A stretch of 64,000 nt of DNA from Candidatus Omnitrophota bacterium (GTDB lineage Bacteria > Omnitrophota > Gorgyraeia > Zapsychrales > Zapsychraceae). Positions 7,565-27,085 of this stretch are shown piece after piece. Each line of letters opens with the position of its first letter. The stretch's first letter is position 1. A program made the position numbers and the translations under genes. Under the pieces are notes generated by a model. That model did not search any database. It was not told where the DNA came from and worked only from the letters and a program-made list of their open reading frames with translations. Where the stretch lies: positions 282,980 to 346,979 of the forward strand of contig JBFWOS010000002.1 in the NCBI GenBank assembly GCA_050250375.1, written 5' to 3'.

Positions 7565-7584
7565 GATAAGAGGTTTTAAAAAAT

Positions 7585-8214: not shown

Positions 8215-8224
8215 GGAGTTTCAT

Positions 8225-9931: not shown

Positions 9932-10006
9932 GTGTCGGATGACGAGAAAATATTTAGAACGTAGCGGTGCCACTGCCGGCAAGTGATTTATTTTGTGAGT
10001 TATTAA

Positions 10007-11320: not shown

Positions 11321-12468
11321 CTATTCCTGATCAGAAAAAAACTATTCGCGTTTTACATGTCGTCGGCGGCATGGATACCGGAGGAGTCGAAACCTGGCTG
11401 ATGCATGTCATGCGCCGGATTGATAGAAGCCTTTACCAATTTGATTTTTTAACACATACCAACAAGCCTTGTTTCTATGATGAAGAAATCAGATCTCTTG
11501 GCGGACAGATTATTCCCTGCCCGCATGCCGCGCGTCCGTGGGAATACGCGAGGTGTTTCCATCGCATCATCAAGGAGCATGGGCCGTATGATGCCGTCCA
11601 CAGCCATGTCCACCATTTTAGCGGGTTTCCGATGATGCTGGCCAAACAGGCCGGTGTGCCGGTCCGTATTTCCCACAGCCATAATGATACTTCCTTAATT
11701 GAAAGCCGGGCCGGATTCGGACGAAAGTGTTATTTGCACACGGCCCTATGGCTGATCCGCCGTTATTCCACCAATGGGCTGGCTTGCAGCGGTGTGGCCG
11801 CCGCAAATTTATTTGGTAAGGACTGGTCCCGTGATTCCAGCCGCCGGATTTTATATTACGGGATCAATCTGGATTCCTTCATGGCGACGGTCCATCGGGC
11901 GGATGTGCGCAGCGAACTGGGTGTGCCGTCAGATGCTTTTGTGGTCGGTCATGTCGGCCGGTTCGCGGAACAGAAAAATCATGATTTTTTGTTGGACGTT
12001 TTTGCCGACTTTTTAAAAAACGAGAAGAACGCCCGTTTACTTCTGGTGGGAAAGGGAATATTAGAAGCAGAGGTTGCGCAAAAAGCTGAACGCCTGGATC
12101 TGATGGACAAGATCATTTTTGCCGGTGTGCGGCCGGATGTTCCGCGTCTTATGTTAGGGGCTATGGATGTATTTGTGTTCCCTTCGCGTTACGAAGGGCT
12201 CGGGCTTGTCATCGTTGAAGCCCAAGCCGCCGGTCTGCCGGTTGTCATGTCTGATGCCATTCCAGAGGAGGCCATAGTTATCCGACCCTTGGTCAAAATG
12301 TTGACTCTGAAGGATGATGTTTCCATCTGGGTTCAAGCCATTGCGGATAGTAGGAGTCTTAATCGGCCGGTCAACGAGTCATACCAAAGCGTTCGGGATT
12401 CAAAGTTTAATGTCATACGGGGTGTGGAAGAATTGTGCGGCATATATGCCGGAAAAACTCAACCATGA
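11317..12468 (+). CDS. glycosyltransferase family 4
   Basis: GT4 E-X7-E region EGLGLVIVEAQAAGLPVVMSD. Confidence 0.8.
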   Translation: MTIPDQKKTIRVLHVVGGMDTGGVETWLMHVMRRIDRSLYQFDFLTHTNKPCFYDEEIRSLGGQIIPCPHAARPWEYARCFHRIIKEHGPYDAVHSHVHHFSGFPMMLAKQAGVPVRISHSHNDTSLIESRAGFGRKCYLHTALWLIRRYSTNGLACSGVAAANLFGKDWSRDSSRRILYYGINLDSFMATVHRADVRSELGVPSDAFVVGHVGRFAEQKNHDFLLDVFADFLKNEKNARLLLVGKGILEAEVAQKAERLDLMDKIIFAGVRPDVPRLMLGAMDVFVFPSRYEGLGLVIVEAQAAGLPVVMSDAIPEEAIVIRPLVKMLTLKDDVSIWVQAIADSRSLNRPVNESYQSVRDSKFNVIRGVEELCGIYAGKTQP

Positions 12469-12511
12469 AAGGGCAGCTGTTTTATACGGATTTAAACGTT
12501 GGACATAACTA

Positions 12512-13678
12512 ATGAACAAATACGATTATACAAATTACCTGTTTTTATATTTCCCTTACCATGTCCTGTTTGCATTTCTGGTCGGCTTGTCTCTTTTTTT
12601 TGATTTTCACAAGACCAGCCGCTCATTGCAGCAAGGGCTGTTTTTTCTATTGATCATCCTGCTGTCGGTTTTCTGCGGCACCCGGGTGGGGTGGAGTGAT
12701 CAGGACGGTTATATGTGGATTTTTGATATGGTACCGCCACTACCCGGGTTTTTGACCGGGCAAACGTATGTGCCGTTTCGGATTGAGTATCTTTATCTTC
12801 TTCTTAATTCTTTTGTGAAATGTTTTTCGCAAAACCCGATGGTTCTTTTCTTGACGGTCGCCAGTGGTGTGGTGACGATGAACCTGTGGGCTTATAGAAA
12901 ATATTCGCCGTATTTTTTTTTAACGGTGCTGGCCTATTATTCCAATTATTATTTTGTAGGAACAATGACCGCCATGAGGCAGGGGATCGCCACAGGCATC
13001 GTTTTATGCGCGGTCTCCCTTTTGACAGGTAAAAAAGATTTAGCGTTTATTGTCTTTGTTATGGTCGCGGCTATGTTTCATTTCTCGGCGATCTTTGCAT
13101 TATTCGGATATGTAGTTTACCGTCTGAATTTTTCTTCGCGTGTTTTGTACTGTTTGGTACTGGGTTCATTGGCGCTTGGTATTTTTTCTCCGGTTTCGCA
13201 CTGGCTGTTCAGCCATTTTCTGTCTTTCAGCAACTTGAATCCACAGATTGAGACGGGATTAAGTTATCTGGAAAATGAGTCCCAAGGTTTTGCTCTCGGT
13301 GTACTGCGGCCGACGTCACTGAAGCAATTGATGATCTGTTTGCTGGCGATCAGATACCGGGAGACTTTAGGTAAACAGATGAAATATTTTGAGGTCTTAT
13401 TCCTTTTTTATTGCGGGGCTACCATCTGGAGGTTTCTCTTTAACGATGTGGCTGTTTTAGCGGCGCGCGTCGCCGGATTGCTCAGTTTGGGAGAACCTGT
13501 ACTCATCGTTTCATTTTTGCTGTTGTTTAAGCACGATCAGCGCAGGTGGATTGCGCTGGGTATTATTTTACTGGCGGCCGGTTCGCTGTATTTAAATTTT
13601 ATCACCTTTAATTATCCTCCTTATGTTTCGGCTTTATTCGGAGGGATGTACTGGAAAGAAGGATTTTTTGGAATTTAA
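12512..13678 (+). CDS. EpsG/Wzy-like polysaccharide polymerase (integral membrane protein)
   Basis: About 10 TM helices. EpsG-like R-x-G-x-D-x-x-Y motif (GTRVGWSDQDGY). Sits between GT genes. Confidence 0.45.
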   Translation: MNKYDYTNYLFLYFPYHVLFAFLVGLSLFFDFHKTSRSLQQGLFFLLIILLSVFCGTRVGWSDQDGYMWIFDMVPPLPGFLTGQTYVPFRIEYLYLLLNSFVKCFSQNPMVLFLTVASGVVTMNLWAYRKYSPYFFLTVLAYYSNYYFVGTMTAMRQGIATGIVLCAVSLLTGKKDLAFIVFVMVAAMFHFSAIFALFGYVVYRLNFSSRVLYCLVLGSLALGIFSPVSHWLFSHFLSFSNLNPQIETGLSYLENESQGFALGVLRPTSLKQLMICLLAIRYRETLGKQMKYFEVLFLFYCGATIWRFLFNDVAVLAARVAGLLSLGEPVLIVSFLLLFKHDQRRWIALGIILLAAGSLYLNFITFNYPPYVSALFGGMYWKEGFFGI

Positions 13679-13696
13679 CGGAGGTATCCCGAAATT

Positions 13697-14896
13697 ATGA
13701 AAGTTTTATTTGTGCATAGTGTGCGTTTTGTCCGCACTCCTGATGGAAGAGTGTTTGCTGAAGGCCAGTTTTCCTATGAAGGATGGACTCGTTATTTAAA
13801 ATATTTTGATGAATTGACTGTGGCGGGACGTATGTCCGAGCGTACAACGGTACCGGAAAAGTGGAATCTGTCTTCCGGCCCGCGAGTAACATTCATCGGG
13901 ACTCCGGATGACCATGGCCAGCGGCTGAAACAATTACAGCAAGGCGAAGCCCGGTCTATCCTTAAGAAAGCTGTTGCAAATTGTGATGCGGTCATCGTCC
14001 GCCAATCGCAGTTGGGCTGGGTGGCAGCCCAGCAGGCTCGGCGGGCTGGGGTTCCTTGGGCGGTTGAAGTGGTATGTAACAGCTGGGACTCGTATTGGAA
14101 TTATGGGGCGTTGGCCGCGAAGTTGTACGCTCCTGTGGCTGAATGGAAATCCCGCTATTGGATCAAACGGGCGGGGTTTGCGATTTACGTAACCCAGGAA
14201 TATTTACAAAGACGTTATCCATGCCGGGGATTTTCCTGCGGTGTTTCAGATGTTGAGGTTGGATCCGAAACGGATGTTCCCAATGGGGTGGAAAAAAAGA
14301 TAACGCGCTGGAAGACCCGCGATAAAGATGGAGCAAAACCTTTCATCGTTGGTCTCATCGGAGATTTGTTCCATCGCGGCAAGGGACTTCATGTGGCCAT
14401 GAGGGCTATGCGTCGTTTACGAGATCAAGGGATTCTGGTTCATTTGCGTGTCCTAGGGAGCGGCCCCCAGGATGGATGGCTCAGCGAAGCCAGGCAAATC
14501 GGTGTGGAGGATTTACTTTTTTTGAACGGCAGCCTGCCCAGCGGCGGCCCGGTGAAACAATGGCTGGATGATTTGGATATTTATATTCAGCCCAGCTTCA
14601 CAGAGGGGTTACCCCGGGCGCTGATAGAAGCCATGAGCCGGGGTCTGCCCGCATTGGGATCAAAGGTAGCCGGTATCCCGGAATTGCTGGCCTCAGAATG
14701 TCTACATAGGCCGGGAGATGACAAAACGCTGGCCCAACAATTAGCCCGGATGGTACAAGATTCATCCTGGCGGTTACAGCAGGCACAAAGAAATTGGGAC
14801 GAGGCACAAAATTTTTGTGGGAACCGTCTGCAGGCCCGGAGAGACGCCTTTTGGAACCAATTTAGTGAATATGTTATGAAGATAAGGAAAAATTAA
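13697..14896 (+). CDS. glycosyltransferase family 4
   Basis: TEGLPRALIEAMSRGLPALGSKVAGIPE (GT4 C-terminal domain). Confidence 0.8.
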   Translation: MKVLFVHSVRFVRTPDGRVFAEGQFSYEGWTRYLKYFDELTVAGRMSERTTVPEKWNLSSGPRVTFIGTPDDHGQRLKQLQQGEARSILKKAVANCDAVIVRQSQLGWVAAQQARRAGVPWAVEVVCNSWDSYWNYGALAAKLYAPVAEWKSRYWIKRAGFAIYVTQEYLQRRYPCRGFSCGVSDVEVGSETDVPNGVEKKITRWKTRDKDGAKPFIVGLIGDLFHRGKGLHVAMRAMRRLRDQGILVHLRVLGSGPQDGWLSEARQIGVEDLLFLNGSLPSGGPVKQWLDDLDIYIQPSFTEGLPRALIEAMSRGLPALGSKVAGIPELLASECLHRPGDDKTLAQQLARMVQDSSWRLQQAQRNWDEAQNFCGNRLQARRDAFWNQFSEYVMKIRKN

Positions 14897-16845
14897 TGTG
14901 CGGTTTTGCCGGATATTTAACTGAACATAAACTGGACAACGCCTCAGACATCCTGGTGAAGATGGGTAAGACCATCACCCATCGCGGACCGGATGACCAA
15001 GGTGTATGGCTGGATGCTGATGCAGGGCTTGGATTAGCCCATCAGAGATTATCGATTGTGGATTTGTCGCTGGCAGGACATCAACCGATGGTCTCCGTCA
15101 GTAACCGTTATGTGATTGTCTTTAACGGAGAAATTTACAATCATCTCCAATTGAGGGAAGAGTTGTCTAAAATAAAGGCGGATATATCCTGGCGCGGGCA
15201 TTCTGATACTGAAACTTTGTTGGCCGGTTTTGATGTCTGGGGGATCGAAACGACTGTTAAGAAATCAACCGGTATGTTTGCCTTTGCCGTTTGGGACCGT
15301 CGTGACCGTCAGTTGATTTTGGGGCGGGACCGGGTCGGCGAGAAGCCGTTGTATTACGGATGGCAAGGTTCTACCTTTCTCTTTGGTTCAGAGTTGAAAG
15401 CGTTTAAAGCCCATCCTGATTTTCGCCGAGAAATCGACCGTAATGCCCTGGCCCTGATGATGAGGCATAGTTGTATTCCCGCGCCGTATTCCATTTATCA
15501 AGGTATTCATAAATTATTACCCGGGACACTGCTGAAGGTTTCCTTACAGGATCGTGCAAGTCAGCCACGACCGTATTGGGATATTCATCGGACCGTGGCG
15601 AATGGCTTGGCGGAACCGTTCCAGGGGACCCCCGAGGAAGCTGTAGAAGATTTGGACAAAATATTACGCCAGGCCGTTTCTGATCAGATGGTCGCCGACG
15701 TGCCTCTGGGGGCTTTTCTTTCCGGCGGAGTCGATTCATCCGCAGTGGTTGCGTTGATGCAGGCGCAATCGAAACGTCCGGTGCGCACATTCACGATCGG
15801 TTTAAGCGAAGAACAGTATAACGAAGCGGTGTATGCCAAAGAGGTCGCCCGGCATCTTGGAACAGATCACACCGAACTTTATGTTTCCGCCCAGCAGGCC
15901 AGGGATGTTATTCCACATCTGGCAGAAATGTACGATGAGCCATTTTCCGACGCATCGCAGATTCCCACATTTTTGGTGAGCCGAATGGCACGCCAGCATG
16001 TTACCGTGTCATTGTCCGGTGATGCGGGCGATGAGCTGTTCGGAGGTTACAACCGGTACGTGCTCGGTCAGCGGTTTTGGGGAAAGTTATCGTTCCTGCC
16101 GAAAAGTTTACGAAGGATGATGGCCCGCATGATTACCCACGTTGCGCCTGACCAATGGGACCGGTATCTGTCACGAGTTCAAAAAATTTTGCCTTTGGGA
16201 TTAGCTCAGGCCAACATTGGAGACAAGTTGCATAAAGGCGCAGGAGCGATGGCCGCGCAAACACCGGCCGAACTTTACCGTCACCTGGTGACTCACTGGC
16301 CGCAGCCCGATAAATTAGTTCTGGGCGCGACTGAACCGCCAACCATGTTGACAGGTATAGCGTCTGTTCCAAAAACGGATCATTTTGTGCATCAGATGAT
16401 GGCTCTGGACGCGCTCACCTATTTACCGGACGATATTCTTTGCAAGGTAGACCGGGCCGCGATGAGTGTTTCCCTGGAAACACGGGTTCCGCTATTGGAC
16501 CACCGGGTGATTGAATTTGCCTGGCGATTGCCGTTGGAATATAAAGTACGTGACGGTGTTGGAAAATGGATTCTGCGGCAAGTGCTTTACAAGTATGTAC
16601 CACCCGAACTAATTGAACGGCCTAAAATGGGCTTTGGGATTCCCATTGATGATTGGTTGCGCGGACCATTACGCGATTGGGCCGAAAACCTTCTTAGTGA
16701 ATCGCGTCTGCGAGGGGAAGGTTATCTCAACCCGGAACCTATCCGTCAAAAATGGGCAGAGCATTTGTCTGGGAAAAAAAACTGGCAACATCATTTATGG
16801 GATGTGTTGATGGTCCAGATGTGGCTTGAAAACGAGGGAAGATGA
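14896..16845 (+). CDS. asparagine synthetase (glutamine-hydrolysing) family amidotransferase, WbpS/exosortase-associated type
   Basis: N-terminal Ntn Cys (MCGFAGY). PP-loop SGGVDSS. 649 aa. Embedded in the EPS locus. Confidence 0.8.
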   Translation: MCGFAGYLTEHKLDNASDILVKMGKTITHRGPDDQGVWLDADAGLGLAHQRLSIVDLSLAGHQPMVSVSNRYVIVFNGEIYNHLQLREELSKIKADISWRGHSDTETLLAGFDVWGIETTVKKSTGMFAFAVWDRRDRQLILGRDRVGEKPLYYGWQGSTFLFGSELKAFKAHPDFRREIDRNALALMMRHSCIPAPYSIYQGIHKLLPGTLLKVSLQDRASQPRPYWDIHRTVANGLAEPFQGTPEEAVEDLDKILRQAVSDQMVADVPLGAFLSGGVDSSAVVALMQAQSKRPVRTFTIGLSEEQYNEAVYAKEVARHLGTDHTELYVSAQQARDVIPHLAEMYDEPFSDASQIPTFLVSRMARQHVTVSLSGDAGDELFGGYNRYVLGQRFWGKLSFLPKSLRRMMARMITHVAPDQWDRYLSRVQKILPLGLAQANIGDKLHKGAGAMAAQTPAELYRHLVTHWPQPDKLVLGATEPPTMLTGIASVPKTDHFVHQMMALDALTYLPDDILCKVDRAAMSVSLETRVPLLDHRVIEFAWRLPLEYKVRDGVGKWILRQVLYKYVPPELIERPKMGFGIPIDDWLRGPLRDWAENLLSESRLRGEGYLNPEPIRQKWAEHLSGKKNWQHHLWDVLMVQMWLENEGR

Positions 16846-18011
16846 AAATATTAGTTTTGGCGGGATATGCTGATTCATTAATCAAATTTCGTGGTCCCTT
16901 GCTGGAAACGATGGTCAGGGGAGGACATAAGGTGATCGCCTGTGCGTCCGGACATCCCGTTGAGATTGTAGAACGGCTGGAGAAAATGGGAATTATTTAT
17001 CGGGAAATTCCTCTTCAACGGACAGGAATGAATCCAGTCCGGGACATATACACCGTATTTTTTTTATATCGATTGTTGAAGAGAGAACGCCCGGATATTG
17101 TTTTTGCTTACACGATAAAACCGGTGGTTTATGGTTCTCTGGCCGCACGCTGGGCCGGGATACGGAAATGTTATGCGATGGTAACCGGGTTGGGAAATAC
17201 ATTTGATCATTCGGCCGGAAAAAAAAGATGGTTGCATAAACTGGTTTGTTTTTTATACCGTTTCAGTCTCAAAAAGAATAAAACAGTTTTTTTCCAGAAC
17301 CCGGATGACCGGAATTTTTTTCTGGCATTGAATCTGATAGGGAAAAATACAACGGCAGCGCTGGTGAACGGGTCCGGGCTTGACTTAGAACATTATACCG
17401 TTGCACCAGTGGCTGAAAATCCGGTGGTGTTTTTACTGATCGCCCGGATCATCCATGAAAAGGGGATTGTCCAATACTTTGAAGCGGCCCAACAGTTAAA
17501 AAAACGGTACAGCAACATGATTTTTCGATTGCTCGGAAGGTTTGACACCAATCCTTCTGCCATCAGTCAGGAAACTGTTATGGAATGGCACAAACAGGGA
17601 ATCATTGAGTTTTTGGGATCCGCAGATGACGTCCGGCCGCAGATTGCCGCTGCCAGTGTTTATGTCTTGCCATCCTATTACGGAGAAGGGACTCCCCGAA
17701 CGGTCCTGGAGGCGATGGCGATGGGCCGGCCGGTGATCACAACCGATGCCCCGGGATGTCGGGAGACGATCAGAAAGATAAACAATTCTCCGTGGGATAT
17801 GGAAGAAAAAAAGGGAAGATTTATGATCGGAGCCAATGGTATTTTGGTTCCGGTTAAAGATGTTGAAGCCTTGGCCGCGGCCATGCAGTTTTTTATGGAT
17901 CATCCGCAGGAAATCAGGAGGATGGGACAGGAAAGCCGCCGCTACGCGCAGGAACGTTATGATGTTATTAAGGTCAACGACGTCTTGATGAAAGGCATGG
18001 AGCTACGGTAA
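16842..18011 (+). CDS. glycosyltransferase family 4
   Basis: GEGTPRTVLEAMAMGRPVITTDAPGCRE. Confidence 0.75.
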   Translation: MKILVLAGYADSLIKFRGPLLETMVRGGHKVIACASGHPVEIVERLEKMGIIYREIPLQRTGMNPVRDIYTVFFLYRLLKRERPDIVFAYTIKPVVYGSLAARWAGIRKCYAMVTGLGNTFDHSAGKKRWLHKLVCFLYRFSLKKNKTVFFQNPDDRNFFLALNLIGKNTTAALVNGSGLDLEHYTVAPVAENPVVFLLIARIIHEKGIVQYFEAAQQLKKRYSNMIFRLLGRFDTNPSAISQETVMEWHKQGIIEFLGSADDVRPQIAAASVYVLPSYYGEGTPRTVLEAMAMGRPVITTDAPGCRETIRKINNSPWDMEEKKGRFMIGANGILVPVKDVEALAAAMQFFMDHPQEIRRMGQESRRYAQERYDVIKVNDVLMKGMELR

Positions 18012-18382
18012 TGGCTGAACTGATTTTTAAGCGCAGACAATTTGATGCGGCAACCGCACAAAAATTGCCCTATATGAACGAACAGTTCGAGCAATACCGG
18101 TATCTTCAGCAACTTATATCATTGATTGAAGCCAAAGAAAACAGTCTGGCCGCGTTAAGAGAATTGGCTAGAATTTTAAAGAAGAACGGAGTCGCTTATT
18201 TATTATTCTTGTTCCGGGCGTCACGCGAAAAAACGCCGGTTGGTTTCTTATTAAAATGGTATTTAAAGATAGTCCGGACATTTGTCCATCAAATGGAAGA
18301 AGGTTACTGGGTGAGTCCGAATAATTTAAGGGATAAAACATTCACAGAGTTTCTTTATATTAAATACGGAAAGAATAATTAA
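18011..18382 (+). CDS. hypothetical protein
   Basis: 123-aa ORF translationally coupled between two EPS genes. No recognisable motif. Confidence 0.4.
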   Translation: MAELIFKRRQFDAATAQKLPYMNEQFEQYRYLQQLISLIEAKENSLAALRELARILKKNGVAYLLFLFRASREKTPVGFLLKWYLKIVRTFVHQMEEGYWVSPNNLRDKTFTEFLYIKYGKNN

Positions 18383-18384
18383 GT

Positions 18385-20211
18385 ATGTTGTCTAAAATAA
18401 TATGGTTGAAGCATCATTGTCCGGGTATATGGGCTGTCATTGAGAAAATAAATAATGGATTCCTCTTTCTGTTGTGGGGTAAAAGGATCACGGCTGTCCG
18501 TGAAAAGCTGACCCAGTGGCAAGCTTTAGCGGATGGACGTATCCGTTTATTAAATAGACATGATACCGATAGTCTGGTTGAATTTCTAAAACAGGTCACC
18601 AAAGAAGAATTGACTTTTTTCAAGCCGCATGGATTTGACAAGGCGAGTATTGAAACTGTCTTGAATAGCTTAGGGTACATGCCGATTGGTTTTTTTATTG
18701 AAGATAAGTTGGCCGGTTATTTTATGATGCGCCTATTTTGTTCGAAAAAGGCCTTTATTGGCCGGTATTTGTCCGGCGATATGAGACGAAAGGGGTTGGG
18801 AGGGCGCATGGCGCAGGTCTTGTACGGTATGGGAGAAGATTTGAATTTTGAGGTCTTTTCGACGATCAGCCGGGATAATAATTCTTCGCTGCGGTCACAT
18901 GAAAACATGGGAATGATGACCATTGTTAAAGAGTTGCCCAATAATTATCTGCTGGTAAAGTTCACGAATGGGAATGGTCAGCCATCGCAATCTTTTAAGG
19001 GAGTGACCGGCAAGAAAACAGTGGATGTAGTCCTCAGTTATGGCTGGAACCGTGTCGCCTATAATATGCTTCGGGCCCTGGCCTTAAATAACCTGCGAGT
19101 AGCTGTCGGAGACAGTTCCCGCTTCGCCATGGCCAAGGCATCGCGTTATTGCGCGGGTTCATTTCGATATCGATCGTTTTACCGGAACCCTCAGGATTTC
19201 ATCAGTGACCTGGAGAGGGCATTTAGCCGGTTTAAGCCACAGGTATATTTGCCATCTCACGAAGAGACCTTTATCGTCGCGCGTTATATTGACCGGTTGC
19301 GAAAGACCGGAGTTAAGATTCCCATTGCGGATTTTAATACCATCAAAACTCTTCACCGCAAAGATCTTTTGATGCCGGAAACTCATAAATTAGGAATACC
19401 AACTCCGAAGACGTTTAAGTTAGAACATCTTGACCAACTAAAACATTTTTGGGCCGAAGCGGGGAAAGATAACTGTGTAGTGGTCAAGTTATTAAATACA
19501 AACAGTTCAAAGGGAGTATTTTATGCCCGTTCGCTAGAGGAATTGAAATCAATCTGCCAATGTGTTATCAAAGGACAGACTCGGGAGAATTATCCGATTA
19601 TTCAGGAATATGTGGAAGGGGCCGGATACGGGGTATCCATGCTTTTCAATCAGGGTGTGTTAAAGGCAAAATTCACGCATAAACGTTTAAGGGAAAAAAT
19701 TTATACGGGGGGAACAAGTACTGTGCGCATAAGTACGGAAAATATTGAATTGGAAAATTATGCTGAGCGATTGTTGAGCAGTATGAATTGGCATGGAGTC
19801 GCTATGGTGGAATTTAAGTACAATGAAACCGAAAAACGAGGGTGGCTTATAGAAGTTAATCCCCGTTACTGGGGATCATTAGCGTTGGCGATCCAGTCGG
19901 GAGTAAATTTTCCGCTCCTTGCGTATAAAATGGCGCAGAATGGGGATGTGGCTCCAGTCAAAGATTATAAGAAAGGTGTGGTTACCCGCTGGATCCTCGG
20001 TGATGTCTTGGCCGCCCTGGATTGTATTAAATATAAAAAGAAAATGTCTGATATGAAGAAATTTACGACAAAAAGGATTAAGTACGATGATTTTTATTTT
20101 GACGATCCGTTACCCTTCTTTGCCCAGGGAGGGTATTATGCCGCTAAATTCCTTAAGGGGTTTAAGATGAATCCCCTGAAAAACGCGATTTTGGATATTG
20201 ACCGGATATGA
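18385..20211 (+). CDS. bifunctional GNAT acetyltransferase / ATP-grasp ligase fusion protein
   Basis: N-terminal GNAT motif (RRKGLGGRMAQVLYG). C-terminal ATP-grasp region with IIQEYVEGAGYGVSMLF and VAMVEFKY...WLIEVNPRYWGSL. Confidence 0.65.
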   Translation: MLSKIIWLKHHCPGIWAVIEKINNGFLFLLWGKRITAVREKLTQWQALADGRIRLLNRHDTDSLVEFLKQVTKEELTFFKPHGFDKASIETVLNSLGYMPIGFFIEDKLAGYFMMRLFCSKKAFIGRYLSGDMRRKGLGGRMAQVLYGMGEDLNFEVFSTISRDNNSSLRSHENMGMMTIVKELPNNYLLVKFTNGNGQPSQSFKGVTGKKTVDVVLSYGWNRVAYNMLRALALNNLRVAVGDSSRFAMAKASRYCAGSFRYRSFYRNPQDFISDLERAFSRFKPQVYLPSHEETFIVARYIDRLRKTGVKIPIADFNTIKTLHRKDLLMPETHKLGIPTPKTFKLEHLDQLKHFWAEAGKDNCVVVKLLNTNSSKGVFYARSLEELKSICQCVIKGQTRENYPIIQEYVEGAGYGVSMLFNQGVLKAKFTHKRLREKIYTGGTSTVRISTENIELENYAERLLSSMNWHGVAMVEFKYNETEKRGWLIEVNPRYWGSLALAIQSGVNFPLLAYKMAQNGDVAPVKDYKKGVVTRWILGDVLAALDCIKYKKKMSDMKKFTTKRIKYDDFYFDDPLPFFAQGGYYAAKFLKGFKMNPLKNAILDIDRI

Positions 20212-20795
20212 AAATTGTATTATTTGATTTTGACCGGACACTGACGAATCGGGACACCTTGCGTCCGGTAGCGAAATATTTTTCCGGGGAAGACCGTAAA
20301 TATTTTTCCTTGGTGATTTTGTATTTTATCCTGGTGTTGTCCCGTTTTCGGATCATCAATGATAAGACGATGAAAGAATTTTTCTTAAGTGTTTTCATAA
20401 AAGGAAAAGAACTTTCCTGGGTAAATACAGCGGTAAGAAAATATTTCGGAAATAATCTGGAATCTTTAATTAACCGTCCGGTGTTTGAAGCCTTGGAGAA
20501 TTATCGAAAAAACAGTGCCAAGATTTATATTGTATCAGCCAATTTTGATTTTCTTTTAGAGCCACTCATTGAATTATGGGGGATTACCGGAGTTATATGC
20601 ACGCAGACGGAAAAGTTAAACGGCGTTTTTACCGGAAAAATAACAGGTGAAACATGCAAAGGGAAAGAAAAAGCGGCAAGACTAAGGACGATGTTTGCCC
20701 CGCAGGATTTCTCCGGTATGACGGCCTATGGTGATGAAGGCGACCGCGAAATGCTGGATATGGTTGGAGAGGCGAAGTTGATTAAGAATAGTTAA
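20208..20795 (+). CDS. HAD-IB superfamily hydrolase
   Basis: Motif I FDFDRTLT. C-terminal GDEGDREML. Confidence 0.65.
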   Translation: MKIVLFDFDRTLTNRDTLRPVAKYFSGEDRKYFSLVILYFILVLSRFRIINDKTMKEFFLSVFIKGKELSWVNTAVRKYFGNNLESLINRPVFEALENYRKNSAKIYIVSANFDFLLEPLIELWGITGVICTQTEKLNGVFTGKITGETCKGKEKAARLRTMFAPQDFSGMTAYGDEGDREMLDMVGEAKLIKNS

Positions 20796-20820
20796 ATATT
20801 AATATAAGTGAGGGTATTTT

Positions 20821-21480
20821 TTGAGATTTAGAAAATTCATTATTTTTTTTGCTGTTTGTGTTTTTATCGCAGGCATTTTGATTGCTTCAAAGGATTATTA
20901 TCTACCTTTGTTCGGATCATTTTTGGTTATAAAGGACGACCTAAAACCGGCGGATGCGGTCATTGTCCTGGGAGGCGAAGAGGAACGGATATATTACGCG
21001 GTGAAACTGTATAAACAGAAACTCGTGAAATATATCGTGATTACCGGTGGAGGCGTGACCGGCCGTGAAATCAGCATCGCCGGCTGGTTAAAAATTAGGG
21101 CGCTCAAATCGGGTGTCCCTGAAAAAAATATTTTACTTGAAACAAAGGCTGAGCACACGTACCAGCATCCAATTTTTGTTAAGCCGATTTTAGTGGAACA
21201 TGGGTTTACATCGGCGATCGTGGTGAGTTCTCCCTATCACATGCGCCGATCGGTGATGCTGTTTAACCGGGCATTCCGAATGAGCGGAATCAACCTGACT
21301 TACATTCCTGTTGCCGACAGCTGGTTTAAGTCTGATCGCTGGTGGAAAAGTTCGGATGGCCGGAGAATTGTATTTTCAGAATACATAAAGCTCGCGGTGG
21401 ACATGTGGGGCGTCAAGGTGAGCGATCGGGCCTGTGCCTTGTTAAAGGAGAAAAAGTGGTCCATACTTGTTACCCGTTGA
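20821..21480 (+). CDS. DUF218 (SanA/YdcF/ElyC family) protein
   Basis: ADAVIVLGGEE...IVITGG and SSPYHMRRS patterns. TTG start with an N-terminal membrane anchor. Confidence 0.55.
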   Translation: MRFRKFIIFFAVCVFIAGILIASKDYYLPLFGSFLVIKDDLKPADAVIVLGGEEERIYYAVKLYKQKLVKYIVITGGGVTGREISIAGWLKIRALKSGVPEKNILLETKAEHTYQHPIFVKPILVEHGFTSAIVVSSPYHMRRSVMLFNRAFRMSGINLTYIPVADSWFKSDRWWKSSDGRRIVFSEYIKLAVDMWGVKVSDRACALLKEKKWSILVTR

Positions 21481-21507
21481 AGAATCTTAACGGAAAGACT
21501 TAACCTT

Positions 21508-22161
21508 ATGAAAAGACTTTTTGATTTAATTTTCTCATTTTTTGGGCTGGTAGTTCTCGCTCCCTTACTGGCTGTTGTCGCGGTAATCATAAAACTGACA
21601 TCGGAAGGGCCGATCCTTTTTTCGCAAAAACGCGTCGGACTTTATGAGAAGATATTCCTGATCTATAAGTTCAGGACCATGGTGGATAAAGCCGACACGA
21701 AAGGGACTTCAGTTACGACCGGGAATGACCCGCGCATTACGCCCATCGGGCGAATATTACGAAAGACAAAACTGGATGAATTACCCCAGTTATTTAACGT
21801 TATGAGAGGGGATATGAGTTTCATCGGCCCTCGGCCGGATGTGCCGGAGATTACGGCGAAATATACACCGCAGATGAAGAAAATTTTTTCCGTTCGTCCG
21901 GGCATAACCAGTGTAGCGACTCTGCATTTCCGGCAGGAAGAAGAAATCCTGGCGAAAATTAAGGATCCGGATCGGTTTTATGATGAGAGAGTTGTGCCTT
22001 TAAAAGTGGCTTTGGCCATGGAGCATGTCGAACGCAATTCATTTTTATTTGATTTATTGATTCTTATGCAGACTGTGTGGGTCCTGCTGCCTTTGGGGAA
22101 AATTTGGCCGGTCAAGGAATTGCCGGCGGTTAAACAATTTAGAGAGGAATATTCGTTATGA
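21508..22161 (+). CDS. small bacterial sugar transferase, PglC/WecP-like initiating phosphoglycosyltransferase
   Basis: Re-entrant N-terminal helix. Bac_transf motifs KFRTM and DELPQLFNVMRGDMSFIGPRP. Confidence 0.85.
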   Translation: MKRLFDLIFSFFGLVVLAPLLAVVAVIIKLTSEGPILFSQKRVGLYEKIFLIYKFRTMVDKADTKGTSVTTGNDPRITPIGRILRKTKLDELPQLFNVMRGDMSFIGPRPDVPEITAKYTPQMKKIFSVRPGITSVATLHFRQEEEILAKIKDPDRFYDERVVPLKVALAMEHVERNSFLFDLLILMQTVWVLLPLGKIWPVKELPAVKQFREEYSL

Positions 22162-23339
22162 AGAAGCCGACGTTCGCGCCTTGGCCGTCGTTTGACGCCG
22201 AGATTATTGACGCAGTTAAAAGCGTATTAGTATCCGGGAAAGTAAGCCAATGGACCGGAACAAATGTTTACGCGTTTGAAAAAGAATACGCGCAATATTT
22301 GGGAGTGAAACATGCGATTGCGATGGCCAATGGTACGGTTACGCTGGATGCCGCCTTAAAAGTTTTAGGCATTGGTCCGGGTGACGAGGTAGTTGTATCG
22401 AGCCGTTCCTTTGTTGCGTCGGCCAGTTGTGTCGCATATGCCGGGGCTCTGCCGGTCTTTGCTGATATTGACGGCTCTAGTGGAAATATGACGAAGGAAA
22501 CGATCGAGGCCGTTCTCACAAAGAAAACAAAGGCGGTCATCGTTGTTCATTTAGCCGGATGGCCTTGTGATATGGATCCGATCGTGCAATTGTGTCAGTC
22601 TCGAAAATTATGTCTGATCGAAGATTGTGCACAGGCGCATGGAGCCCTATATAAGGGAAGGCCGGTCGGGACATTCGGAGATTTTGCCTCTTTTTCTTTT
22701 TGCCAGGATAAGATATTTACGACCGGCGGGGAGGGAGGGCTTTTGGTTACCAATGATCCGAGACGATGGAAAAAGGCCTGGAGTTTAAAGGATCATGGGC
22801 GCGACTATGATGTGGTCTTTAACCAGACGAGCGGAACGAGCTTCAAGTGGATGGTCAACAGCTTCGGGACAAATAACCGTATGACTGAGATCCAGGCGGC
22901 GATCGGGAGGATTATGTTGAAGCGGCTGGATGAAATGGTGGGTAAACGCCGCCAGCATGCAGTTTTTTTTGATGCTGCTTTTAAAAAAATGGAGGGGCTT
23001 GTGGTCCCGGTTGTGCCGTCTGAAATAAAACATTCTTATTACAAATATTATGTCTATGTTGATCCGAAAAAATTAAAAGCCGGTGAATCCAGAGATACGA
23101 TCCTGCAAGAATTATCTGCCTTGGGTGTTCCCTGCGGGAGCGGGGCATGTCCGGAAATTTATCGGGAAAAGGCGTTCCGCGACCAGCGTAAAAAAATGAG
23201 TTTGTCGGCGCAGAAACATCTTTCGGTGAGTAAGAAATTGGGAGAGACGTCGATTATGTTGCAGGTGCATCCGACATTATCATCAGATAGTATCCATTAT
23301 GTGATTGATTCCATGAAAAGTGTATTTAAGAAGGATTAG
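22158..23339 (+). CDS. DegT/DnrJ/EryC1/StrS family PLP-dependent sugar aminotransferase
   Basis: Fold-type I aminotransferase pattern. Probable PLP-binding Lys in SFCQDK. Confidence 0.8.
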   Translation: MKKPTFAPWPSFDAEIIDAVKSVLVSGKVSQWTGTNVYAFEKEYAQYLGVKHAIAMANGTVTLDAALKVLGIGPGDEVVVSSRSFVASASCVAYAGALPVFADIDGSSGNMTKETIEAVLTKKTKAVIVVHLAGWPCDMDPIVQLCQSRKLCLIEDCAQAHGALYKGRPVGTFGDFASFSFCQDKIFTTGGEGGLLVTNDPRRWKKAWSLKDHGRDYDVVFNQTSGTSFKWMVNSFGTNNRMTEIQAAIGRIMLKRLDEMVGKRRQHAVFFDAAFKKMEGLVVPVVPSEIKHSYYKYYVYVDPKKLKAGESRDTILQELSALGVPCGSGACPEIYREKAFRDQRKKMSLSAQKHLSVSKKLGETSIMLQVHPTLSSDSIHYVIDSMKSVFKKD

Positions 23340-23341
23340 CT

Positions 23342-25195
23342 ATGAGACCACTACGACAATTAAAATTTTTACTGAAATACCGGCGGTTAGTGACTATCTT
23401 CGTCCACGCGATCTTGTTTATAATGGCCTACGTTTTTGCGTATTTGTTAAGGTTTGAATTCGATATTCCGGAATACCAAATGGTCAATTTTTACGAGGCG
23501 TTACCGATGGTGATAGCGATTCAATTGATGATTTTTGGATTTTTGGGATTGTTTCATGAACTCTGGCATTATATATCCATCGAAGATGTGGTACAACTCA
23601 TTAAAGCGAACGTGACCGCGTCAATTCTCTTTTTAGCGCTGACCAAACTGCTGGGCTGGAATTCCTTCCCGCGCTCCATTATTATTCTGGATTTTATCCT
23701 TGCTTTGGGGTTTTCCTCAGGTTTACGGCTGTCATTAAAGATGTTTAAAGATTATTTGCAGAGAAATAAATACTCTTCCGTCCGTGCCCACCGTATTCTT
23801 ATCGTTGGGGCAGGCGAAGCCGGGGTCATGCTGCTCAAAGAGATCACTCGCAATAACCCGGGTATGGGGGGCGAGGTCGTCGGGTTTATCGATGACGATC
23901 CGTTGAAGCAAAAATCAAACATCCAGGGAGTAAGAATTATGGGGACCCGCTGTGAAATTCCCCAGGTCGTCACCAAACACAAAGTCGATGAGATCATCCT
24001 GGCCATTCCATCGGCGGATGGTGGGACCGTACGAGGAATTCTCGCTCATTGTGAAAAGACTAAAACCAAGATCCAGGTTATTCCGGGGATCAAACAGATT
24101 TTGAGCGGGGAGAAGCAATTGAAGCCCCGTGATGTCCATCCGGATGACCTTCTCGGTCGAGAAACCGTCACAATCAATACCGAAGAAGTACGCCAATATA
24201 TTAAGAACCGTGTGGTCTTAGTCACGGGGGCTGGCGGTTCGATTGGGTCTGAGATCTGCCGGCAGGTCGCGTCTTTTGTCCCAAAAGAATTAATCCTTCT
24301 TGATCACTATGAAAACTCATTGTATTTTCTTTTGCTGGAACTCAAAAATACATATCCACATCTTTTAACAACCCCGATCATCGGTGATGTCAGGGATGTT
24401 GGACTTTTGAAACAGGTTTTTAGCCGGGCCAGACCGCAGGTGGTTTTTCACGCCGCCGCGCATAAACATGTGCCCCTTATGGAAATTAATCCGGCTGCTG
24501 CGGTAAAAAATAATATCTTCGGCACACGGAACATGATTTATGCCAGCAATCACTACGGGGTGGAACGTTTTGTATTCATATCAACGGATAAAGCGGTTAA
24601 TCCGATCAATACCATGGGAATGTCGAAGCGCGTCGCGGAGATGATCCTCCAAGCCCGGGCGCAAAAAAGTAAGACCAAATTTATGGCGGTACGGTTCGGT
24701 AATGTCCTGGGTTCTGCAGGTTCGGTGGTGCCACTCTTTAAGCAGCAGATCGAGAAAGGCGGTCCGGTTACGTTGACTGACCCTGCAGTAAAACGCTATT
24801 TTATGAGCATTAAAGAGGCCTGTATGCTCGTCCTGCAGGCAGGGGCATTGGGAAAAGGCGGGGAAATTTTTATCCTCGATATGGGTGAGCAGATCAAAGT
24901 CTTGGACCTTGCGCATAACCTGATTACATTATCAGGTCTGGTCCCGGAAAAAGATATTGAGATTCAATATGTCGGCCTTCGCCCCGGTGAAAAACTTGAA
25001 GAGGAGCTACTGTTGGACAAAGAAAAAGACGCGATGACGCAACATAACAAAATCTTTGTTAACTATTGCGGAGTGACATTTAACCGCCAGGTCCTTGGGC
25101 GCAATCTTCGCCGGTTGCATCGTAAGACTCAGGAAATTAATGAAGAAGAAATTAACCGGTTGTTGATGGAAATTATAGCAGCTGGGAATATATGA
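23342..25195 (+). CDS. membrane-anchored UDP-GlcNAc 4,6-dehydratase (PglF/CapD/WbpM family)
   Basis: Four N-terminal TM helices. Two Rossmann segments (VGAGEAG; VLVTGAGGSIGSE). 617 aa. Confidence 0.8.
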   Translation: MRPLRQLKFLLKYRRLVTIFVHAILFIMAYVFAYLLRFEFDIPEYQMVNFYEALPMVIAIQLMIFGFLGLFHELWHYISIEDVVQLIKANVTASILFLALTKLLGWNSFPRSIIILDFILALGFSSGLRLSLKMFKDYLQRNKYSSVRAHRILIVGAGEAGVMLLKEITRNNPGMGGEVVGFIDDDPLKQKSNIQGVRIMGTRCEIPQVVTKHKVDEIILAIPSADGGTVRGILAHCEKTKTKIQVIPGIKQILSGEKQLKPRDVHPDDLLGRETVTINTEEVRQYIKNRVVLVTGAGGSIGSEICRQVASFVPKELILLDHYENSLYFLLLELKNTYPHLLTTPIIGDVRDVGLLKQVFSRARPQVVFHAAAHKHVPLMEINPAAAVKNNIFGTRNMIYASNHYGVERFVFISTDKAVNPINTMGMSKRVAEMILQARAQKSKTKFMAVRFGNVLGSAGSVVPLFKQQIEKGGPVTLTDPAVKRYFMSIKEACMLVLQAGALGKGGEIFILDMGEQIKVLDLAHNLITLSGLVPEKDIEIQYVGLRPGEKLEEELLLDKEKDAMTQHNKIFVNYCGVTFNRQVLGRNLRRLHRKTQEINEEEINRLLMEIIAAGNI

Positions 25196-25225: not shown

Positions 25226-26221
25226 ATGAGAGTAGCCGTTTTTAACACCAAGTCGTACGACAAGCAGTTTCTGGAAGAGGCCAACGCCGGCCGGCATGAA
25301 TTTGTTTTTTTTGAAGCCCACATAAACCGGACCACCTGCCCGCTGGCTTACGGGTTTGAAGCCGTCTGCGTGTTCGTCAATGATATCATTGACCGGGAGG
25401 TCCTGGAGCTGCTGGCCGCCAACGGGACCACGCTGATCGCCCTGCGCTGCTCCGGCTATAATAATGTCGACCTTCCGGCGGCCGCCCGGCTGGGGATCAA
25501 GGTCGCCCGGGTGCCCGCGTATTCCCCGCACGGCGTCGCGGAACACGCGGTGGCCATGATGATGTCGCTGAACCGCAAGATTTACCGGGCGTATAACCGC
25601 ATCCGCGAGGGGAATTTTTCGCTGGACGGTCTGCTTGGGTTCGAGATGAACGGCAAGACCGTCGGGATCATCGGGACCGGAAAGATCGGTTACCTCACCG
25701 CGGCGCTCTTAAAAGGTTTCGGCATGAACCTGCTGGGGTACGACGTCCGCAAAAATCCGGAAGCGGAAGCCATCGGGATGACATACGTGAGTCTGGATGA
25801 ACTCTACCGGCAAAGTGATATCATCAGCCTGCATATCCCTCTGCTGAAAGACACTTATCACATCATCAACGAGCGGTCGGTCGCCCTGATGAAAGACAGG
25901 GTGATGCTGATCAATACCAGCCGGGGCGGGCTGATTGATACCCAGAGCGTGATCGACGGATTGAAGTCCGGGAAGATCGGATATCTGGGCCTGGATGTTT
26001 ACGAAGAGGAAGGGGACCTGTTTTTTGAAGACCTTTCCGGCCATGTGATCCAGGACGACGTCTTCGCGCGGTTATTGATTTTTCCCAACGTGGTGATCAC
26101 CGGGCACCAGGCCTTTTTCACCGCCACTGCCCTGAAAAATATCGCTGAAACGACCATTAGCAACATCACCGCCCACGCGGAAAACCGGATCGATCCGGCC
26201 AATCTGGTCGTTTTGAAATAA
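25226..26221 (+). CDS. D-isomer-specific 2-hydroxyacid dehydrogenase (D-lactate dehydrogenase-like)
   Basis: NAD-binding GIIGTGKIGY. Conserved catalytic region. Confidence 0.75.
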   Translation: MRVAVFNTKSYDKQFLEEANAGRHEFVFFEAHINRTTCPLAYGFEAVCVFVNDIIDREVLELLAANGTTLIALRCSGYNNVDLPAAARLGIKVARVPAYSPHGVAEHAVAMMMSLNRKIYRAYNRIREGNFSLDGLLGFEMNGKTVGIIGTGKIGYLTAALLKGFGMNLLGYDVRKNPEAEAIGMTYVSLDELYRQSDIISLHIPLLKDTYHIINERSVALMKDRVMLINTSRGGLIDTQSVIDGLKSGKIGYLGLDVYEEEGDLFFEDLSGHVIQDDVFARLLIFPNVVITGHQAFFTATALKNIAETTISNITAHAENRIDPANLVVLK

Positions 26222-26629: not shown

Positions 26630-27085
26630 TGCAATAGGAGAGTCCTCCAAATTTGGAGAGACTTCTCCAAAGTTTTTTCTGGAGAAAGTTAAAGGAGAGT
26701 CCACCTCACCGGTCATATTGAAGATATTTGACCGGTGGGTGAGACTTTCACGCTAAGAATTCGATTATCGAAGATTAATGAGGAGAGTCCGCCTCGCCAA
26801 AATCAAAGATTTTGGCGGGCGAGACTTCTCCAAAATTTTTTCTTCGAAAAAATTTTGGAGAGGTGGCAGAGTGGTCGATTGCAGCTGCCTGCTAAGCAGT
26901 TGTCCTGGAAACGGGACCCAGGGTTCGAACCCCTGCCTCTCCGCCATTTTCTGACAATACTCGGGTCCTCCAAATTTGTTTACAAATTTGGAGAGATCTC
27001 ACAAAATTCATAGAATTTTGTGGACGAGACCTCGCCCTCCAAAATTGTGAAACAATTTTGGAGAGACGGGTCCGCCATTTTACTT
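26630..27085. repeat. array of at least 7 short quasi-palindromic hairpin units that surrounds the tRNA-Ser gene
   Basis: Units are bracketed by GGAGAGTCC...GAGAC boxes. Cores include the perfect 14-bp palindrome CTCCAAATTTGGAG, a 15-bp-stem hairpin ctccaaaattttttc/ttc/gaaaaaattttggag, a 12-bp-stem ctccaaatttgt/tt/acaaatttggag and ctccaaaattgt/gaa/acaattttggag. Confidence 0.6.
26857..26946 (+). tRNA. tRNA-Ser(GCT), type II with long variable arm; CCA encoded
   Basis: Acceptor GGAGAGG/CCTCTCC. Anticodon loop CTGCTAA. 17-nt variable arm. T-arm CAGGG/TTCGAAC/CCCTG. Discriminator G followed by CCA. Confidence 0.8.

Follow-up and report, generated by a model that had tools for sequence, protein, structure and literature searches.

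The stretch of DNA considered here (hereafter the window), 64,000 nucleotides of contig JBFWOS010000002.1 from a Candidatus Omnitrophota bacterium, carries within a polysaccharide locus an open reading frame (ORF) for a 608-residue protein that joins a GNAT-like N-acetyltransferase domain, through a short linker, to a full ATP-grasp ligase. Our favoured interpretation, in which our confidence falls somewhat short of even, is that this fusion may have two activities, both serving to tailor the amino sugar with which a Wzx/Wzy-type polysaccharide is initiated. Both domains and their motifs are intact, the fusion is conserved, ATP-grasp genes of this kind are linked to a gene for a HAD-IB phosphatase, and both domain families are linked to DegT, Bac_transf and PglF-type genes. 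The fusion is real but rare, and the broader result is the conserved ATP-grasp and HAD module, together with a ligase-associated GNAT family, rather than the fusion itself.

According to our proposal, the PglF-like dehydratase and the DegT aminotransferase of the same locus would convert UDP-GlcNAc into a UDP-4-amino-4,6-dideoxy-HexNAc. The ATP-grasp domain would then use ATP to turn a phosphorylated carboxylic acid into an acyl-phosphate and ligate it to the sugar 4-amine, and the translationally coupled HAD-IB enzyme would strip the phosphate from the ligation product. The GNAT domain would transfer the acetyl group of acetyl-CoA to the amine that remains free, the alpha-amine of the attached amino acid, and the small phosphoglycosyl transferase (PGT) would move the finished sugar-1-phosphate onto undecaprenyl phosphate. 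The acid would most likely be an O-phospho-hydroxy-amino acid (phosphoserine, phosphothreonine or phosphohomoserine) and less likely phosphoglycerate. We infer the acceptor, the identity of the acid, its phosphorylation and the order of the steps from gene context: the strict linkage of the HAD to the ATP-grasp suggests that the acid carries a phosphate that is later removed, and an amino acid is favoured over phosphoglycerate because the GNAT domain needs an amine and because tandem ligase arrays found beside other members of the GNAT-like family (see below) resemble aminoacylation followed by a cap.

The fusion is a single uninterrupted frame with no internal stop on the plus strand, as the first-pass annotation of this DNA had read it, and the motifs which that annotation had quoted are all found in the protein: RRKGLGGRMAQVLYG at residues 134-148, QEYVEG at 407-412 and EVNPRYWG at 490-497. 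ORF, motifs, Pfam and fold evidence agree that one protein in a polysaccharide locus contains both a GNAT and a complete ATP-grasp domain. An identical NCBI entry, from a Candidatus Omnitrophota metagenome-assembled genome (MAG), is annotated as 'ATP-grasp domain-containing protein'. Full-length fused relatives come from other samples (P0002, 607 aa, 74% identity; P0003, 610 aa, 73%), and they are the only proteins besides that of the window to show the full architecture among 5.8 billion clustered proteins; when 1.84 billion representatives were searched exhaustively with a profile, the one protein among the best 150 matches to combine GNAT-like and ATP-grasp domains was the representative of the cluster to which the fusion itself belongs. 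The linker of about 15 residues differs in length and sequence among the three fused relatives and has an AlphaFold pLDDT (predicted local distance difference test) below 50 at residues 198-211; the two domains were modelled separately, the ATP-grasp model spanning residues 205-608. A split by an overlooked stop or frameshift would have undone the original interpretation, and a frameshift or mis-called fusion is ruled out by the single ORF kept in three further sequences from independent samples, P0002 and P0003 among them. The wider suspicion of an artefact, be it a sequencing or assembly frameshift that merged two genes or an N-terminal half unrelated to GNATs, could draw on a GNAT score below the Pfam gathering threshold. 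It is already refuted by those independent ORFs and by strong structural and family-level evidence for the GNAT, and we give it practically no weight.

That structural and family-level evidence is as follows. The domain check proposed in the first-pass annotation gave a mixed answer, in that ATPgrasp_Ter and ATP-grasp_3 scored above their cutoffs and Acetyltransf_1 did not, the window protein reaching 17.8-18.8 bits against a Pfam cutoff of 20.7. However, 12 of 18 members of the GNAT-like family (alignment A1) match Acetyltransf_1 at E<0.01 (best 3.7e-6), and 28 of the 29 matches of the family profile in the PDB are GNATs or N-acetyltransferases. The AlphaFold model of the domain (pLDDT 83) retrieves GNATs as all 50 of its top 50 Foldseek matches in the PDB (best E=2e-8, target-normalised TM-score 0.74), and on this modelled structure the N-terminal half is a genuine GNAT fold despite its sub-cutoff Pfam score. 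The motif for the pyrophosphate of coenzyme A, Q/R-x-x-G-x-G/A, is present as R134-R-K-G137-L-G139, with G137 kept in at least 90% of the family; the family signature is an invariant FxPHGFD (residues 79-85), and two N-terminal helices precede the GNAT core. The architecture is thus a single GNAT of about 150 residues with N-terminal helices, without FemAB or Acetyltransf_6 matches in the domain, and the earlier suggestion of a FemX-like swap finds no support for this domain, a Fem protein being a double GNAT of about 330 residues. The family is small and uncharacterised (139 clusters at E<=1e-30 among the 1.84 billion representatives), its members are mostly standalone proteins of about 200 residues, and a search of a plasmid collection returned no match to it.

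The assignment of the C-terminal domain is more straightforward. It scores above the Pfam cutoffs for ATPgrasp_Ter (47.1 bits, cutoff 29.1; 2.6e-12) and ATP-grasp_3 (39.0 bits, cutoff 23.2; 1.1e-9), and its AlphaFold model has a pLDDT of 90.9. The conserved ATP-binding lysine, Mg-binding glutamate and asparagine and catalytic arginine are all present: K368, E476, N492 and R494 of the fusion correspond to positions K164, E272, N288 and R290, which are invariant in the ATP-grasp alignment A2. Q407-E-Y-V-E-G is conserved among the ATP/Mg residues, and a basic loop, FTHKRLREK (430-438), is kept across the family. The best NCBIfam models, PRK06849 and PRK12767 ('carbamoyl-phosphate-synthase-like'), are uncharacterised and matched far below their cutoffs, and the Foldseek and profile matches are biotin carboxylases and, closest, 2pn1, an uncharacterised structural-genomics protein. 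Our searches found no functionally characterised close relative of this domain and no characterised enzyme with the same combination of domains, in line with the earlier remark that the architecture is unfamiliar. The ATP-grasp domain has other fusion partners as well, namely GT4 glycosyltransferases (P0075, P0085) and, in P0006, an unrelated protein of about 300 residues; none of the 120 ATP-grasp homologues listed carries PF02397. The protein P0006 is encoded at 9001-11142 of locus L007, and its N-terminal extension is 56% identical to a 299-residue ORF (6323-7219) of L001, a locus closely related to that of the window; the 299-residue protein weakly matches the Fem-type Acetyltransf_6 (E=0.005). 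The plasmid collection holds only distant relatives of the ATP-grasp, mostly haloarchaeal. A homologue on a plasmid of B. nitratireducens, of the B. cereus group, was set aside as a candidate, as it lies in an unrelated PIG-L/GT4/phosphotransferase cluster with no Pat/Pyl operon.

The start of the HAD gene overlaps the 3' end of the fusion by 4 nt (ATGA), and the catalytic motifs of the phosphatase (DxDxT, S/T, K and GDxxxD) are intact. With the ATP-grasp alignment as query, 80 loci were retrieved, and the window proteins served to search the ORFs in them. Where the ATP-grasp is at least about 40% identical to that of the window and the contig is long enough, almost all loci have a HAD gene as the next gene downstream, and the HAD is absent from all loci whose ATP-grasp falls under about 40% identity. 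Clustering of the ORFs of the close-clade loci placed the HAD directly downstream in 19 of 19, and L094 and L095 are alike, so that the arrangement holds for all 21 readable loci. We therefore regard ATP-grasp and HAD as a fixed two-gene module. Eight of the 19 loci, the window included, combine the module with a DegT gene, seven of these eight also with Bac_transf, and mostly with a PglF-like dehydratase. The set of dehydratase, 4-aminotransferase and small PGT recurs in L005, L088 and L094, and in L095 as far as the DegT gene. The order in L088, L094 and L095 is ATP-grasp, HAD, Bac_transf and DegT, followed in L088 and L094 by the PglF-like dehydratase, and no acetyltransferase of any kind was found within this block; the module therefore seems to fill the slot of the N-acylating enzyme there.

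The GNAT-like family has independent ties to the same pathway. Among 80 metagenomic loci fetched with the family alignment, direct neighbours could be counted downstream in 68 and upstream in 65. Bac_transf is the commonest downstream neighbour (35/68), and upstream neighbours include ATPgrasp_ST (30/65), GT4 (17/65) and a CapK-like adenylating enzyme (8/65); a carboxylate-activating ligase adjoins about 65% of the members. Fusions of the GNAT-like domain with Bac_transf (P0138), with DegT (P0183) and with a second GNAT (P0142) also occur, natural 'Rosetta stones' that connect the family with the pathway of the initiating amino sugar. The family is thus tied to the DegT/Bac_transf initiating amino-sugar pathway, and the frequency of Bac_transf downstream, together with P0138 and P0183, places it in the N-acylation slot. 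In four loci (L166, L167, L168 and L170) the GNAT-like gene stands unfused, and the gene after it encodes an ATP-grasp of the same family as that of the window, about 30% identical to it over the full length (E ~1e-50); in L170 Bac_transf comes next. A neighbour-joining tree groups the window GNAT domain with members that have no ligase beside them (L001, L102, L127, L139 and L158) and L166, L168 and L170 elsewhere, the ST- and CapK-associated members falling mostly in another clade; since the window and L166/L168/L170 stand apart, the pairing of this GNAT-like family with this ATP-grasp family arose at least twice. In L107 (2781-5986), L134 and L150 (1-6000), three to six tandem ATPgrasp_ST (PF14397) paralogues end in a GNAT-like gene followed by a PGT gene, a pattern suggesting that a short peptide is built up stepwise on an amino sugar and then capped with acetyl. 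The first-pass annotation had proposed N-acylation and amino-acid ligation in succession on one sugar. Two acylation chemistries on one sugar fit both the linkage of GNAT-like, DegT and Bac_transf genes and the recurrent adjacency of a ligase; the succession itself is unproven.

These neighbourhoods bear on a further explanation, a relay in which the ATP-grasp would activate an unusual acid, for example as an acyl-CoA, with which the GNAT would N-acylate the 4-amino sugar, and the HAD would trim the acyl phosphate. A family that occurs with or without a ligase and nearly always beside a PGT would fit a constant reaction with a variable acyl donor, the CapK-like neighbours being, as we take them, relatives of acyl-CoA ligases, and physical fusion would favour channelling. 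Nevertheless, most ATP-grasp and HAD pairs have no GNAT-like partner, three to six tandem ATP-grasp genes ahead of one GNAT-like gene are hard to square with the supply of an acyl donor, and we know of no ATP-grasp enzyme outside the succinyl-CoA/acetyl-CoA synthetase lineage that forms CoA thioesters. The precedent of Pyl (see below) is reported to ligate directly onto the UDP-amino sugar. We therefore consider such a relay improbable. In favour of our proposal of consecutive ligation and capping, the GNAT-like family adjoins three unrelated types of carboxylate-activating enzyme (ATPgrasp_ST, CapK-like and the ATP-grasp family of the window).

Several points weigh against that proposal. The assignments of acid and acceptor come from gene context. 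Nine of the 19 close-clade loci, about half, have the module beside a GT2 gene with neither DegT nor PGT, and the acceptor can hence not be a UDP-4-amino sugar in every case. Five of the nine, from Ignavibacteria and a Woesearchaeota MAG, also encode a large membrane protein, and four have genes resembling those of nonribosomal peptide synthetases (NRPS) or polyketide synthases (PKS), an annotation read off the sequences by inspection, without a Pfam run. The order in L013, L018, L019 and L022 (Ignavibacteria) and in L021 is a membrane protein of about 500 residues, ATP-grasp, HAD and GT2, and in the first four a PKS/NRPS-like protein of about 1,600 residues and an NRPS-like protein of about 860 residues precede it; in these five loci the acceptor may be a lipid or another glycoconjugate. 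The ligase-free kin of the window GNAT presumably act directly on the sugar 4-amine, and a window GNAT that had kept this specificity would be in competition with the ATP-grasp for a single amine rather than act in sequence with it. Fusions of the ATP-grasp to GT4 and to the 300-residue protein could reflect loose co-assembly rather than consecutive chemistry. Finally, the ATP-grasp shows no sequence similarity to Cj1438C, the ligase of a known pair to which we now turn.

In Campylobacter jejuni, the C-terminal domain of Cj1438 (Cj1438C) forms an amide of glucuronate with serinol phosphate or ethanolamine phosphate, after which the HAD phosphatase Cj1435 strips the phosphate from the product (PMC11800397). 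Using the sequences in the supplement of that paper, we found that the window HAD aligns with Cj1435 end to end (22% identity over 194 aa, E=5e-6), both belonging to PF12710. BLASTP of the fusion ATP-grasp against Cj1438C gave no significant alignment, and Cj1438C is TupA-like (PF14305, 1e-37), unlike the ATPgrasp_Ter/ATP-grasp_3 domain of the window; orthology of the two ligases was rejected on both grounds. With homologous phosphatases but dissimilar ligases, the window pair is best described as an analogue, and not an orthologue, of Cj1438C/Cj1435. The two systems have in common an ATP-dependent amide step, a phosphorylated substrate (proposed in the case of the window) and a subsequent HAD, and glycosyltransferase::ATP-grasp fusions exist in both. 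They differ in that Cj1438C acts on the glucuronate carboxylate of a growing chain, and the window has no uronic-acid-forming gene.

This precedent lends itself to a different explanation of the window, in which the growing glycan would contain a uronic acid whose C6 carboxylate the ATP-grasp would activate and join to a phosphorylated amine (ethanolamine-P, serinol-P, or phosphoserine via its amine), to be dephosphorylated by the HAD, with the GNAT acetylating the 4-amino initiating sugar like PglD and the fusion amounting to co-location. Besides the homology of the phosphatases, it would account for the GT4::ATP-grasp proteins P0075 and P0085, which mirror the architecture of Cj1438, and for the GT4 gene directly upstream in L010 and L088, and in the window just past the 123-residue remnant described below. 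The loci without DegT and PGT and the grouping of the window GNAT with ligase-free kin also agree with it, and the AsnB-like amidotransferase of the locus hints at carboxylate chemistry. However, tblastn with a UDPG_MGDP_dh protein as query detected no gene for a UDP-sugar 6-dehydrogenase, either in the window or in what was fetched of L005, L008, L009, L088 and L094, which weakens the case for a uronic-acid acceptor, although the genome may have such a gene outside the window. Dedicated enzymes for making a phospho-amine were not recognised, the ligases belong to different Pfam families, as said, and the DegT product of L088, L094 and L095 would be left without an acylating enzyme. Although it deserves attention, we judge this explanation unlikely. 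We also found no acetyltransferase of the left-handed beta-helix (LbH) type in the window or in the same fetched parts.

The features of the locus are given in Table 1. Downstream of the fusion, the gene order is HAD, DUF218, Bac_transf, DegT and PglF-like dehydratase; the small PGT is predicted to take the finished UDP-sugar, and the DegT protein has PseC, ArnB and LegC-type aminotransferases as its best NCBIfam matches, all under their cutoffs. The longest ORF of the DUF218 gene opens at a TTG, 26 nt past the HAD stop. This gene lies between the acylation genes and the PGT gene in L001 and L005 as well, the same position, and is also present in L007 and L088. The PglF-like gene is followed, at 25226-26221, by that of a D-isomer-specific 2-hydroxyacid dehydrogenase, for which the models of VanH, glyoxylate reductase and phosphoglycerate dehydrogenase score about equally, none reaching its cutoff. 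This dehydrogenase could be a source of hydroxy acid or phospho-acid, but a role as dedicated acid supplier is unsupported, as the gene is absent from L001 and L005 and its subfamily is ambiguous. The upstream part (6323-16845) has genes for export proteins of the Wza-like and Wzc-like kinds, for a BBP2-type beta-barrel porin and a Wzx-type flippase, and for an EpsG-family protein, GT4s and the AsnB-like protein. The AsnB-like protein scores best against the XrtA/PEP-CTERM-system amidotransferase model TIGR03108, below its cutoff (572 bits, cutoff 817). A tRNA-Ser (GCT) at 26857-26946 and a partial tRNA at 1-53 bracket this polysaccharide locus of about 27 kb.

Table 1. Features of the polysaccharide locus around the fusion gene (positions in the window)
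Feature	Position	Strand	Basis or remark
GT4 glycosyltransferase	16842..18011	+	Homologues precede an ATP-grasp or GNAT-like gene in many related loci
Decayed class-I S-adenosylmethionine (SAM) methyltransferase remnant, 123 aa	18011..18382	+	Comparison with L001
Fusion ORF, 608 aa (GNAT-like N-acetyltransferase domain, linker, ATP-grasp ligase)	18385..20211	+	ORF call
GNAT-fold domain, residues 1-197	18385..18975	+	Family alignment A1, Pfam, PDB profile, AlphaFold/Foldseek
Inter-domain linker, residues 198-212	18976..19020	+	Alignments, AlphaFold
ATP-grasp carboxylate-amine ligase domain, residues 213-608	19021..20208	+	Pfam, NCBIfam, alignment A2, AlphaFold
HAD-IB phosphatase	20208..20795	+	PF12710 2.6e-22; TIGR01490 116 bits, cutoff 98.3
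DUF218 protein (ElyC/YdcF-like)	20821..21480	+	PF02698 1e-25
Small monotopic phosphoglycosyl transferase (Bac_transf, PglC-like)	21508..22161	+	PF02397 8e-61
DegT/PseC/ArnB-type sugar 4-aminotransferase	22158..23339	+	PF01041 2e-99
PglF-like membrane-anchored UDP-GlcNAc 4,6-dehydratase	23342..25195	+	Polysacc_synt_2 3e-118 and CoA_binding_3; PseB/FnlA-type domain

Comparison with L001 gives a view of the history of this stretch. L001 carries, in order, genes for AsnB, a GT4, a 211-residue GNAT, the 299-residue unknown protein, a 252-residue methyltransferase, the GNAT-like protein, DUF218, Bac_transf, DegT and the PglF-like dehydratase, and has neither ATP-grasp nor HAD. Relative to L001, the window lacks the 211-residue GNAT and the 299-residue protein, and its methyltransferase is missing the first 83 residues; an ATP-grasp and a HAD are inserted after the GNAT-like gene, the ATP-grasp being fused to it. 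The ORF of 123 residues just upstream of the fusion, with its stop 2 nt before the fusion ATG, exists as the first-pass annotation had described it; it is not of unknown nature, being 62% identical to residues 84-168 of the intact L001 methyltransferase in the same position, with a matching C-terminal tail. It is without the N-terminal 83 residues, which contain the SAM-binding GxGxG, and without an internal segment of about 57 residues, and nothing resembling the missing parts turned up in the rest of the window. In L005 the corresponding ORF is truncated by the end of the contig. As a truncated and internally deleted remnant it was rejected as a partner protein, and, judging from its sequence, a functional partnership with the fusion is unlikely. 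The GC content is 0.38-0.45 from this ORF (the minimum of the locus, 0.376) over the fusion, HAD, DUF218 and Bac_transf genes (18000-22200), compared with 0.505 in the AsnB-like gene, 0.558 in the 2-hydroxyacid dehydrogenase gene and 0.476 in the whole window, which fits cassette exchange. The methyltransferase identity of the 123-residue ORF, the HAD-IB partner and the ties of the GNAT-like family to the PGT pathway are points that the first-pass annotation did not contain.

Such a history could also mean that the two domains act in parallel, as alternative acylases of one 4-amine that would yield two glycoforms (4-N-acetyl and 4-N-acyl), or, in a weaker form, that one of them came in with a recently inserted cassette and is decaying as its passenger. 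The fusion is indeed phylogenetically recent and rare, with four sequences in one clade (among them P0001, which is the window protein, P0002 and P0003) and one cluster in the exhaustive search; the closest relative of the GNAT domain, that of L001 (65% identity), does without ATP-grasp and HAD; and the already decayed methyltransferase next door indicates a stretch in flux, in which the GC content is low. However, catalytic motifs are kept in both domains and the fusion has been preserved over about 26% divergence, and the order GNAT-like, ATP-grasp, PGT arose independently with separate genes in L166, L167, L168 and L170. We regard parallel acylation as decidedly unlikely.

Many bacterial surface glycans contain amino sugars that are N-acylated with amino or hydroxy acids, some of them acetyl-capped, and the enzymes responsible for this tailoring are mostly unknown. 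Our analysis provides three units that can be tested: a GNAT family dedicated to the pathway, a clade of ATP-grasp enzymes bound to a HAD, and a natural fusion of both. The source is an uncultured Omnitrophota MAG, and direct impact hinges on heterologous biochemistry. A wider claim, which we find rather doubtful, is that ATP-grasp and HAD-IB could form a widespread, hitherto uncharacterised two-enzyme module of bacteria and some archaea that would add hydroxy-acyl or hydroxy-aminoacyl groups to glycans by ligating O-phosphoserine, O-phosphothreonine, O-phosphohomoserine or phosphoglycerate, all phosphorylated primary metabolites, and dephosphorylating the product. In this case the module would be welded to a capping N-acetyltransferase, and the fusion with its phosphatase would make an N-(N-acetyl-hydroxyaminoacyl) sugar out of a UDP-4-amino sugar. 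If the phospho-acid route were true, the logic of the C. jejuni capsule would extend to another ATP-grasp lineage and to the amines of nucleotide sugars, and prediction of glycan structure from sequence, and of the substrates of small PGTs, would improve.

The only well-studied proteins that we encountered in which a single chain holds both a GNAT and a module of the ATP-grasp type are the protein lysine acetyltransferases Pat/PatZ, in which a GNAT is fused to an ADP-forming acyl-CoA-synthetase-like region containing an ATP-grasp. Their GNAT domains (4u5y, 9it0) are among the best Foldseek matches of the window GNAT. Unlike the window protein, they have the opposite domain order, an ATP-grasp of another lineage and protein substrates, and no glycan context or HAD. 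Closer in the reaction proposed are PglD and the acetyltransferase domain of PglB, of the LbH fold, and PseH and WecD, of the GNAT fold, all of which N-acetylate the 4-amine of a nucleotide-linked 4-amino-4,6-dideoxy sugar in pathways with a dehydratase, an aminotransferase and a PGT. The PglB acetyltransferase is fused to a PGT, as is P0138 in the GNAT-like family. In contrast to the LbH fold of PglD and PglB, that of the window domain is a GNAT fold, and the FxPHGFD signature and the two-helix N-terminal extension mark its family as a separate one; PseH and WecD were not among its top 50 Foldseek structural matches.

For the ligase, two precedents can be compared by description. Pyl, from the UDP-Yelosamine pathway of B. 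cereus ATCC 14579 (Hwang et al. 2014), is described as ligating 2-oxoglutarate to UDP-4-amino-FucNAc (PMC11626204, PMC8987622) and as being encoded just upstream of a small PGT (PMC11626204). Like the window enzyme, it is an ATP-grasp whose gene keeps company with those of a UDP-GlcNAc 4,6-dehydratase, a 4-aminotransferase and a small PGT; unlike the acid proposed for the window, that of Pyl is not phosphorylated, and neither a HAD partner nor a GNAT fusion is reported for it. In PglB2 of Neisseria meningitidis, an ATP-grasp domain is described as replacing the acetyltransferase domain of PglB and yielding glyceramido-acetamido-trideoxyhexose (GATDH) (PMC11130364, PMC6959607). An ATP-grasp in the slot of an acetyltransferase is also what we see in L088, L094 and L095, and the hydroxy-acyl product of PglB2 could derive from a phosphorylated precursor; if the acid of the window enzyme were phosphoglycerate, the route proposed here could explain the origin of glyceramido sugars such as neisserial GATDH. 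The ATP-grasp of PglB2 is fused to its PGT, which in the window is a separate gene, and no HAD partner is described for it, and the window has an acetyltransferase domain in addition to the ATP-grasp. Taken with these systems, the fusion belongs to a known type of sugar-tailoring chemistry and is not a new kind of system.

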